Positions 2 to 5,134 of a DNA stretch of 6,772 nucleotides are shown here, piece after piece. How positions within the stretch are numbered: position 1 is the first letter of the stretch; each line of letters opens with the position of its first letter. The notes beneath the pieces are model-generated. The model had not been told where the DNA came from. It worked only from the letters and a program-made list of their open reading frames with translations, and searched no databases. Source of the DNA: a virus (taxonomy: Duplodnaviria > Heunggongvirae > Uroviricota > Caudoviricetes); IMG/VR virus record IMGVR_UViG_2671180884_000018. One strand, given 5' to 3'. The position numbers and the translations under genes are program-made.

Positions 2-358
2 GCGGTGAACTTCGTCAACGGAAACAGTGACGCCGATCCGGAGCAGGAGGTGATCAGCCGCTGGCGCATCGAGCAGTGCAGCGAACTGAGCGCGGTGAGT
101 GCCTCCTTTGTACTGTCCACGCCGACGGAAACGGATGGCGCTGTTTTTCCGGGACGTATCATGCTGGCCAACACCTGCACCTGGACCTATCGCGGTGATG
201 AGTGCGGTTATCACGGTCCGGCAGTTGCGGATGAATATGACCAGCCGACGTCCGATATCACGAAGGATAAATGCAGCAAATGCCTGAGCGGCTGTAAGTT
301 TCGCAATAACGTCGGCAACTTTGGCGGCTTCCTTTCCATTAACAAACTTTCGCAGTAA
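2..358 (+). CDS. L: Tail tip protein L (gpL-like), 3' portion only; the 5' end lies upstream of the window
   Basis: Open frame running from the window edge to TAA at 356-358. Translation (…NFVNGNSDADPEQEVISRWRIEQCSELSAV…CTWTYRGDECGY…CSKCLSGCKFRNNVGNFGGFLSINKLSQ) matches the C-terminus of phage lambda gpL as I recall it, including the C-terminal cysteine cluster. Position immediately upstream of K/I/J fits lambda gene order. Confidence 0.9.
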   Translation, partial: AVNFVNGNSDADPEQEVISRWRIEQCSELSAVSASFVLSTPTETDGAVFPGRIMLANTCTWTYRGDECGYHGPAVADEYDQPTSDITKDKCSKCLSGCKFRNNVGNFGGFLSINKLSQ

Positions 359-362
359 TCCC

Positions 363-1106
363 ATGACAGAGACAGAATCAGCGATTCTGGCGCACGCCCG
401 GCGATGTGCGCCAGCGGAGTCGTGCGGCTTCGTGGTGAGAGCGCCGGAGGGGGAAAGATATTTTCCCTGCGTGAATATTTCCGGTGAGCCGGAGGATTAT
501 TTCCGGATGGCTCCGGAGGACTGGCTGCAGGCAGAGATGCAGGGTGAGATTGTGGCACTGGTCCACAGTCATCCCGGTGGTCTGCCCTGGCTGAGTGAGG
601 CTGACCGGCGGCTGCAGGTGCAGAGTGATTTGCCGTGGTGGCTGGTCTGCCGGGGGGCGATTCACAAGTTCCGCTGTGTGCCGCATCTCACCGGGCGGCG
701 CTTTGAGCACGGGGTGACGGACTGTTACACGCTGTTCCGGGATGCTTATCATCTGGCGGGGATTGAGATGCCGGATTTTCATCGCGGGGATGACTGGTGG
801 CGTCACGGTCAGAATCTCTATCTGGATAATCTGGAGGCCACAGGGCTGTATCAGGTGCCGTTGTCATCAGCACAACCGGGCGATGTGCTGCTGTGCTGTT
901 TTGGTTCATCGGTGCCGAATCATGCCGCCATTTACTGTGGTGATGGCGAGCTGCTGCACCATATTCCTGAACAACTGAGCAAACGAGAGAGGTATACCGA
1001 CAAATGGCAGCGACGCACACACTCCCTCTGGCGTCACCGGTCATGGCGCGCATCTGCCTTTACGGGGATTTGCAACGATTTGGCCGCCGCATCGACCTTC
1101 GTGTGA
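363..1106 (+). CDS. K: Tail assembly protein K (gpK-like), JAB/MPN metallopeptidase-like N-terminal part plus NlpC/P60-like C-terminal part; start codon uncertain (ATG 363 vs ATG 507)
   Basis: ORF ends at TGA 1104-1106. Translation from ATG 363 (MTETESAILAHARRCAPAESCGFVV…) contains an exact JAMM-type motif HSHPGGLPWLSEAD (HxHx7Sx2D, nt 564-605) and an NlpC/P60-like Cys/His context (GVTDCYTLF…NHAAIY). The classical 199-aa lambda K would correspond to ATG 507 (MAPEDWLQ…), which is preceded by GGAGGA at 491-496. The ORF-track start at 321 is not an ATG/GTG/TTG codon (ATG is out of frame at 320-322) and lies inside L, so it is not used. Confidence 0.8.
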   Translation: MTETESAILAHARRCAPAESCGFVVRAPEGERYFPCVNISGEPEDYFRMAPEDWLQAEMQGEIVALVHSHPGGLPWLSEADRRLQVQSDLPWWLVCRGAIHKFRCVPHLTGRRFEHGVTDCYTLFRDAYHLAGIEMPDFHRGDDWWRHGQNLYLDNLEATGLYQVPLSSAQPGDVLLCCFGSSVPNHAAIYCGDGELLHHIPEQLSKRERYTDKWQRRTHSLWRHRSWRASAFTGICNDLAAASTFV

Positions 1107-1675
1107 AAACGGGGGCTGAAGCCATCCGCGCACTGGCCACACAGCTCCCGGCGTTTCGTCAGAAACTGAGCGACGGCTGGTATCAGGTACGGATTGCCGG
1201 GCAGGATGTCAGCACGTCCGGATTAACGGCGCAGTTACATGAGACTCTGCCTGATGGCGCTGTGATTCATATTGTTCCCAGAGTCGCCGGGGCCAAGTCA
1301 GGTGGTGTATTCCAGATTGTCCTGGGAGCAGCCGCCATTGCCGGATCATTCTTTACCGCCGGAGCCACCCTTACAGCATGGGGGGCAGCCATTGGGGCCG
1401 GTGGTATGACCGGCATCCTGTTTTCTCTCGGTGCCAGTATGGTGCTCGGTGGTGTGGCGCAGATGCTGGCACCGAAAGCCCGGACGCCCACAGCGACCAG
1501 CACGGATAACGGTAAGCAGAACACCTATTTTTCATCACTGGATAACATGGTTGCCCAGGGCAATGTTCTGCCTGTTCTGTACGGTGAAATGCGCGTGGGG
1601 TCACGCGTGGTTTCTCAGGAGATCAGCACGGCAGACGAAGGGGATGGTGGTCAGGTTGTGGTGATTGGTCGCTGA
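1004..1675 (+). CDS. I: Tail assembly protein I (gpI-like), 223 aa, with a Gly/Ala-rich hydrophobic segment
   Basis: ORF 1004-1675 translates to MAATHTLPLASPVMARICLYGDLQRFGRRIDLRVKTGAEAIRALATQLPAFRQKLSDGWYQVRIAG…VVVIGR, matching lambda gpI in sequence and length as recalled. It overlaps the 3' end of K (1004-1106) in a different frame, as in lambda. Confidence 0.9.
   Translation: MAATHTLPLASPVMARICLYGDLQRFGRRIDLRVKTGAEAIRALATQLPAFRQKLSDGWYQVRIAGQDVSTSGLTAQLHETLPDGAVIHIVPRVAGAKSGGVFQIVLGAAAIAGSFFTAGATLTAWGAAIGAGGMTGILFSLGASMVLGGVAQMLAPKARTPTATSTDNGKQNTYFSSLDNMVAQGNVLPVLYGEMRVGSRVVSQEISTADEGDGGQVVVIGR

Positions 1676-1732: not shown

Positions 1733-5134
<3,402 letters not shown>

Follow-up and report, generated by a model that had tools for sequence, protein, structure and literature searches.

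Our results strongly support a model whereby K of this lambdoid tail operon is one 744-nt gene (363–1106) that starts at ATG 363 and encodes a JAB domain followed by an NlpC/P60 domain, while the start at ATG 507 is an annotation artefact. The architecture is that of a 28-kDa protein in which a JAB/MPN+ (JAMM) domain makes up approximately residues 1–100 and an NlpC/P60 domain approximately residues 111–224. The window, by which we mean the whole 6,772-nt stretch of DNA that was analysed, comprises the L-K-I-J-lom-stf tail region of a lambdoid prophage. Its positions 250–1110 are 100% identical to Escherichia phage ev207, and a prophage of E. coli 2012EL-2448 is 99.97–100% identical to the entire window with the exception of one inverted segment in J. 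In ev207, phage 21, and lambda, the gene upstream of K carries the annotation minor tail protein L. The features of the K region are as follows.

5–358, plus strand: 3' part of tail gene L, taken from the list of open reading frames; the gene continues past the left end of the window and ends with the stop codon TAA at 356–358.
363–1106, plus strand: full-length gene K, 247 codons and TGA (1104–1106), 28.2 kDa, JAB/MPN domain and then NlpC/P60 domain.
363–365, plus strand: ATG, put forward as the true K start; it lies 4 nt past the L stop and lacks a Shine-Dalgarno sequence.
363–506, plus strand: the 48 N-terminal K codons that are absent from the classical 199-residue K, coding for helix 1 and strands 1–2 of the JAB fold and for its catalytic Glu.
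417–419, plus strand: GAG codon of Glu19, the acidic member of the JAMM motif (PAESCG), inside CAPAESCGF and invariant in the homologue alignment.
491–496, plus strand: Shine-Dalgarno-like GGAGGA within the coding sequence, in codons Glu42-Pro43-Glu44-Asp45.
497, plus strand: site homologous, by alignment, to the base missing in J02459/NC_001416 between 14266 and 14267; the base is G in lambda.
507–509, plus strand: internal in-frame ATG (Met49), equivalent to the classical lambda K start at 14276 and an internal codon in the window.
564–605, plus strand: JAMM metal-binding motif H68-S-H70-x7-S78-x2-D81, HSHPGGLPWLSEAD, from the translation and the homologue alignment.
693–1034, plus strand: NlpC/P60 (C40) peptidase domain, K residues 111–224 (Pfam PF00877, 47.7 bits).
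1004–1675, plus strand: open reading frame of gene I (ubiquitin-like domain and tail-tip plug domain), which overlaps the 3' end of K; Pfam Lambda_tail_I covers residues 14–97.

The L-K junction consists of TAA (356–358), the four nucleotides TCCC, and ATG (363–365), and in translation the K frame runs without a stop from 363 to the TGA at 1104–1106. A preliminary description of this DNA had presented the start of K as ambiguous; its positions for the L stop, ATG 363, the Glu codon at 417, GGAGGA at 491–496, ATG 507, and the JAMM motif at 564–605 were all correct, and the K start in the window holds no real ambiguity. The homologous 744-nt coding sequence is already annotated as K in NC_049949, OL657228, PV340536, and NZ_CP027586, some of them near-identical phage and prophage records, as well as in many others.

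As that description had argued, a complete JAB/MPN domain requires ATG 363. Against the Pfam Prok-JAB profile (PF14464; gathering cut-off 25 bits, profile length 114), the 247-residue K scores 52.8 bits over profile positions 4–103 of 114, whereas the 199-residue K, which indeed has just 19 residues ahead of the JAMM motif, scores 22.9 bits over positions 63–103 only and falls under the cut-off. Residues 1–48 by themselves match profile positions 3–51 (E = 3.5e-5), and this match together with the rise from 22.9 to 52.8 bits is more than would be expected by chance. The catalytic motif has been defined as E-x(n)-H-S/T-H-x7-S-x2-D (PMC300881). In K this motif is complete, with E19, H68, S69, H70, S78, and D81 all present and invariant in 16 homologues and with a spacing of exactly seven residues between H70 and S78; E19 is unique to the long form. 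In a PDB search with a profile built from 16 homologues, K residues 4–108 can be aligned with the MPN protein 2kks starting at residue 10 of the latter, and PAESCG of K is placed on PNEACG in 2kks and on PEEGCG in 2kcq, which points to Glu19 as the catalytic acid of the E...HxH-x7-S-xx-D motif. The acidic residue suspected earlier near nt 417 is this Glu19, invariant and aligned with the E of solved MPN proteins.

An AlphaFold2 model of moderate confidence (mean pLDDT 76.7, built from only 16 sequences) places helix 1 (residues 3–15) and two strands (residues 20–27 and 30–35) all in the disputed segment. With this model, Foldseek retrieved 2kks, PfJAMM1 (5ld9 and 5lda, with and without SAMP2), Rpn11, CSN5, and AMSH, all with a probability of 1.00 and with E-values for the MPN matches from 7e-5 to 3e-3, and NlpC/P60 hydrolases were matched too; as modelled, K has the MPN fold. 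PHROG families phrog_2635 and phrog_7305 likewise begin with the first residue of the long K. The first 48 residues are most probably integral to the JAB fold, with Glu19 acting together with H68, H70, S78, and D81. The second domain is matched over its whole length: against Pfam NLPC_P60 (PF00877; gathering cut-off 23 bits, profile length 105), K scores 47.7 bits over profile positions 1–105 of 105, and C121, H187, and H199, which are invariant in the homologue alignment, are candidate catalytic residues of the NlpC/P60 domain.

In the classical view, K is a 199-residue protein made from ATG 507 only and 363–506 is an untranslated spacer between L and K. This is the annotation, with a ribosome-binding site, in the lambda RefSeq/GenBank entries and in some recent records (OM418626), and it has in its favour a good Shine-Dalgarno sequence at ATG 507 and none at ATG 363. 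However, the supposed spacer makes up half of a Pfam domain, and it is conserved at the protein level with codon-periodic substitutions; the check for such conservation across lambdoid relatives, proposed in the preliminary description, returned a purifying, codon-periodic pattern. In a protein alignment of 16 homologues with 67–91% identity from Escherichia, Shigella, Salmonella, Citrobacter, and Edwardsiella, all N-termini lie within ~4 residues of ATG 363 and 16 columns of residues 1–48 are invariant (I8, L9, A12, A16, P17, E19, S20, C21, G22, V24, G30, Y33, P35, N38, S40, and F47). At the nucleotide level, among 113 intact loci (99 unique sequences), parsimony assigns 15, 8, and 28 changes to positions 1, 2, and 3, respectively, of codons 2–48, with a position-3 share of 55% as compared with 58% downstream. 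pN is lower than pS at all divergence levels tested, bar one near-identical pair with just four changes; versus E. albertii, for example, pS is 0.40 and pN 0.08. dN/dS is somewhat higher in codons 2–48 than downstream (for example, 0.31 vs 0.09 in the comparison with lambda); 363–506 is slightly less constrained than the remainder of the gene, yet clearly protein-coding.

The frame is likewise intact at every related locus except in copies of the 1982 lambda reference and in three prophage copies. Frameshifts in 363–506 were found only in the lambda reference and an identical record and in these three copies, which are decayed over their full length; frameshifts or stops limited to 363–506, named earlier as the mark of a non-coding spacer, were thus absent from homologues outside the lambda reference record and its copies. 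Several homologues also lack an ATG at codon 49. Judged by these comparative data, the view that K is made from ATG 507 only is effectively refuted, and we regard it as extremely improbable.

A start at another in-frame codon, such as GTG 471 or GTG 432/435, we hold to be very unlikely. One lambda record, KT232076, annotates K as 636 nt (211 aa), in agreement with GTG 471, and GGGGG ahead of this codon gives an anti-Shine-Dalgarno duplex of -8.4 kcal/mol, but the spacing is 16 nt. Such a start would delete Glu19 and strands 1–2, residues 8–24 are the most conserved stretch of the N-terminal region, and GTG 471 is itself not conserved, being ATG in some loci and absent in others.

Initiation at ATG 363 instead finds a plausible basis in the position of this codon relative to L. 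In agreement with the preliminary description, no clear Shine-Dalgarno sequence precedes ATG 363, the best anti-Shine-Dalgarno duplex being +0.7 kcal/mol, i.e. none, and the location of the codon 4 nt after the L stop is consistent with translational coupling: the distance from the L stop to the K ATG is 4–5 nt in 105 of the 113 loci and 4 nt in the window. The equivalent of ATG 363 is the first start codon past an in-frame stop in most relatives, and in distant homologues (Edwardsiella, Chania, and others) AAGGA, GGGAG, or AAGGTG stands ahead of the same start. With a gap this short and no Shine-Dalgarno sequence before K, L and K look like a translationally coupled (termination–reinitiation) pair, and most likely ribosomes that end at the L stop would re-initiate at ATG 363, 4 nt on. 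It is on this proposed coupling that initiation at 363 rests, because ATG 363 has no Shine-Dalgarno sequence while ATG 507 has a strong one. As a separate observation, in 92 unique K sequences with at least 80% identity, synonymous variation is near absent in codons 4–12 (372–398; ACA GAA TCA GCG ATT CTG GCG CAC GCC) while neighbouring codons are variable, a pattern that selection on the mRNA around the coupled start, or simply the close relatedness of the sequences, might explain.

The strong element upstream of ATG 507 raises the question of two nested products, the 247-residue protein from ATG 363 and a 199-residue NlpC/P60-only protein with a crippled JAB remnant from ATG 507 via GGAGG 491–495. 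The GGAGGA at 491–496, already pointed out in the preliminary description, is a strong Shine-Dalgarno-like element with a duplex of -9.5 kcal/mol, a value reached by only ~4% of window positions, and it lies ~10–11 nt from ATG 507, which is a usable distance. Codon 49 is ATG in 107 of the 113 loci, mostly close relatives, and gene callers often pick the equivalent of ATG 507 on intact DNA. Nevertheless, the other six loci have no ATG at codon 49: E. albertii, at 86% identity, has ATC, an E. ruysiae prophage of 94.7% identity has CTG, and four more distant homologues (52–57% identity) have ATA or ATC. Residue 49 is Ile in 6 of the 16 aligned proteins; this Met/Ile alternation would suit a buried hydrophobic side chain better than an initiation codon. 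The GGAGG is supplied by the codons of the conserved Glu42-Pro43-Glu44 (GAG CCG GAG G) and is lost where the peptide changes, it is predicted to lie inside a 7-bp hairpin (478–495), and no local dip in synonymous variation could be detected around it in a thin set of closely related sequences. The exceptions at codon 49 and the loss of GGAGG indicate that internal initiation is not a conserved feature of the family. The earlier suggestion that both isoforms could exist thus gains no support from conservation, and we consider two nested products unlikely, though conceivable in lambda itself. Nested dual-start genes such as lambda S105/S107 and C/Nu3 have a conserved internal start and ribosome-binding site; K differs from them in that neither is conserved throughout its relatives.

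It is a quite unlikely variant of the same idea that those lambda-like phages that have both ATG at codon 49 and GGAGG make a 199-residue, JAB-less NlpC/P60 product by internal initiation, perhaps gated by the hairpin at 478–495. If this were true, ribosomes translating from upstream would open the hairpin, and two K isoforms with distinct functions in building the tail tip would be made in a constant proportion. RNA folding of 200–700 is modestly better than that of shuffled sequences (z = -2.6), which we read only as possible occlusion of the internal GGAGG. The same region holds two weak terminator-like hairpins, both within coding sequence, and no promoter-like sites were found in it; Rfam gave zero matches in the window. 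We therefore set aside a structured RNA, promoter, or terminator at 200–700.

The single gene from ATG 363 leaves to be explained why K of lambda has been listed with 199 residues. An alignment of the window, phage 21, and lambda reveals that NC_001416 is short by one base between 14266 and 14267, 10 nt upstream of the classical K ATG: it reads GGAGGC-TATTTCCGTATG, while all others have an extra base there, which is G in lambda-type sequences. Translation of the reference from the ATG located 5 nt past the L stop gives MTQTESAILAHARRCAPAESCGFVVSTPEGERYFPCVNISGEPEA before the frame is lost, and tblastn against the lambda reference accordingly finds the two halves of K in different frames. The 148-nt "gap" between L and K and the 199-residue K therefore exist because one base is missing in the 1982 record. 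Exact (100%) matches to the version with the deletion were restricted to J02459, NC_001416, and two further lambda records, at the same coordinates. The G is present in three independently sequenced lambdas (PV340536, OM418626, and KT232076) and in nine or more lambda contigs present as contaminants in assemblies of unrelated genomes, and over 0.9–3.0 kb these resequenced lambdas and contigs differ from the reference by 0 mismatches and exactly one gap. Because the G is present in every independently sequenced lambda examined, the missing base looks like an error in the 1982 record.

Contigs identical to lambda (0 mismatches, up to 3 kb) occur in assemblies labelled as Neobacillus, Pseudomonas, Chromatium, Shewanella, Leeuwenhoekiella, Bradyrhizobium, Paenibacillus, Desulfosporosinus, and others, and evidently represent lambda DNA contamination or spike-in; we used them as independent resequencing of lambda. 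Commercial lambda DNA presumably also carries an inserted G at 14266/14267 relative to NC_001416. A mouse-transgene study lists a 14266 C>CG difference in lambda gt10 in its Table 5 (PMC6760142); in the papers that could be searched, we found the 14266 C>CG variant only there and no explicit statement that lambda K is mis-started.

The single-base difference has a parallel in stf. The stf frameshift of lambda PaPa, reportedly described by Hendrix and Duda in 1992, is a true mutation carried by the laboratory strain. In both cases one base in the reference record alters the apparent structure of a tail gene; unlike the stf frameshift, the base loss in K is absent from every independently sequenced lambda examined.

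As judged from these sequence comparisons, the classical 199-residue K is an annotation artefact whose start was copied on into later records. OM418626 has the G and yet keeps the 14276 start with its annotated ribosome-binding site, and among the best 120 protein clusters ~11,000 members fall in 199-residue clusters as compared with ~50,000 in 247-residue clusters. Natural frameshift alleles were considered as the source of the 199-residue database proteins and rejected, both examples examined being on intact DNA; for the same reason, we attribute these two to gene callers choosing the ATG led by a Shine-Dalgarno sequence. The lambda reference protein NP_040598 is the truncated 199-residue K without residues 1–48, and UniProt P03729 is, we assume, the same truncated protein. 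Consistently, a 2020 review treats gpK as a protein of 199 residues in which only a peptidase at residues 52–182 is seen (PMC7291167).

There is no biological novelty in this, in that the architecture was published in 2003–2006, the 744-nt gene is annotated, and the 14266 insertion is on record; all of it is already known. The remaining value lies in curation, namely the correction of the lambda reference entries, as K still lacks 48 residues, among them a catalytic Glu, in the reference genome of the best-studied phage. Expressing, modelling, or mutating lambda K requires the 247-residue sequence and a lambda sequence with G at 14266/14267. Moreover, some of the "NlpC/P60-only" K variants in comparative surveys may be similar start-site artefacts.

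With the long form restored, K of the window belongs with the lambda gpK/"TAPK" family (tail tip assembly protein K): it occupies the same place in the L-K-I-J operon, has the same JAB and NlpC/P60 domains, and lies beside the ubiquitin-like gpI. The protein is ~95% identical to K of resequenced lambda and differs biologically from lambda gpK in nothing, only from the truncated 199-residue reference entry. Anantharaman and Aravind reportedly described the lambda gpK/"TAPK" family with its JAB and NlpC/P60 domains in 2003. Iyer, Burroughs, and Aravind treated the TAPK family with the same two domains in 2006 and predicted that the JAB domain of K removes the ubiquitin-like N-terminal domain of gpI (PMC1779556). 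[quoted passage not shown] In virions, only gpI residues 135–223 are seen and gpK is absent (PMC10721106), consistent with removal of the gpI N-terminal domain by the JAB domain. gpI is the likely substrate of the K JAB domain, a putative Zn-dependent (iso)peptidase that would release the ubiquitin-like N-terminal domain from gpI while the tail tip is being assembled.

K also shares the E...HxH-x7-S-xx-D motif and the MPN fold with prokaryotic JAMM/MPN+ isopeptidases, including P. furiosus JAMM1, which pairs with SAMP2, the haloarchaeal desampylase HvJAMM1, 2kks, and 2kcq. As in JAMM isopeptidase systems, the partner gene of K encodes a beta-grasp protein with a Gly-rich linker; unlike in these enzymes, the JAB domain of K is joined to an NlpC/P60 peptidase and serves in the assembly of virions. 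K scores 28.5 bits against the NCBIfam desampylase model, far under its cut-off of 130, and is therefore not a desampylase orthologue.

For the neighbouring gene I, near-identical records disagree on the start, giving three versions: ATG 1004 (223 aa; lambda and phage 21), TTG 1070 (201 aa; ev207 RefSeq), and GTG 1103 (190 aa; PGAP annotation of E. coli). The Pfam Lambda_tail_I (ubiquitin-like) domain spans residues 14–97 of the long gpI, from Met14 (ATG 1043). The shorter starts remove 13 and 24 positions of this profile and so probably truncate the beta-grasp domain. Database proteins in which L (PF05100) or I (PF06805) domains are fused to K are nearly all single-member clusters, and we set aside such L-K or K-I fusions as real proteins because this points to probable sequencing frameshifts or pseudogenes.

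Finally, we note that a 559-nt segment of J (1736–5134), at 3315–3873, is inverted relative to the otherwise 99.97–100% identical prophage of E. coli 2012EL-2448. The 167 phage records and 4,579 E. coli genomes that match it likewise all have the opposite orientation. The inversion junction was not found in IMG/VR or in 381 fetched loci. The ends of the segment form a perfect 12-nt inverted repeat, GCGGCAATCCGG (3315–3326) and CCGGATTGCCGC (3862–3873), and the inversion could have arisen by private recombination between these short repeats, as a chimera of assembly or amplification, or through alteration of the window. The J frame is still open across the segment, with residues 531–709 scrambled into antisense-encoded nonsense, and the true J peptide is encoded by the minus-strand open reading frame 2666..3856.
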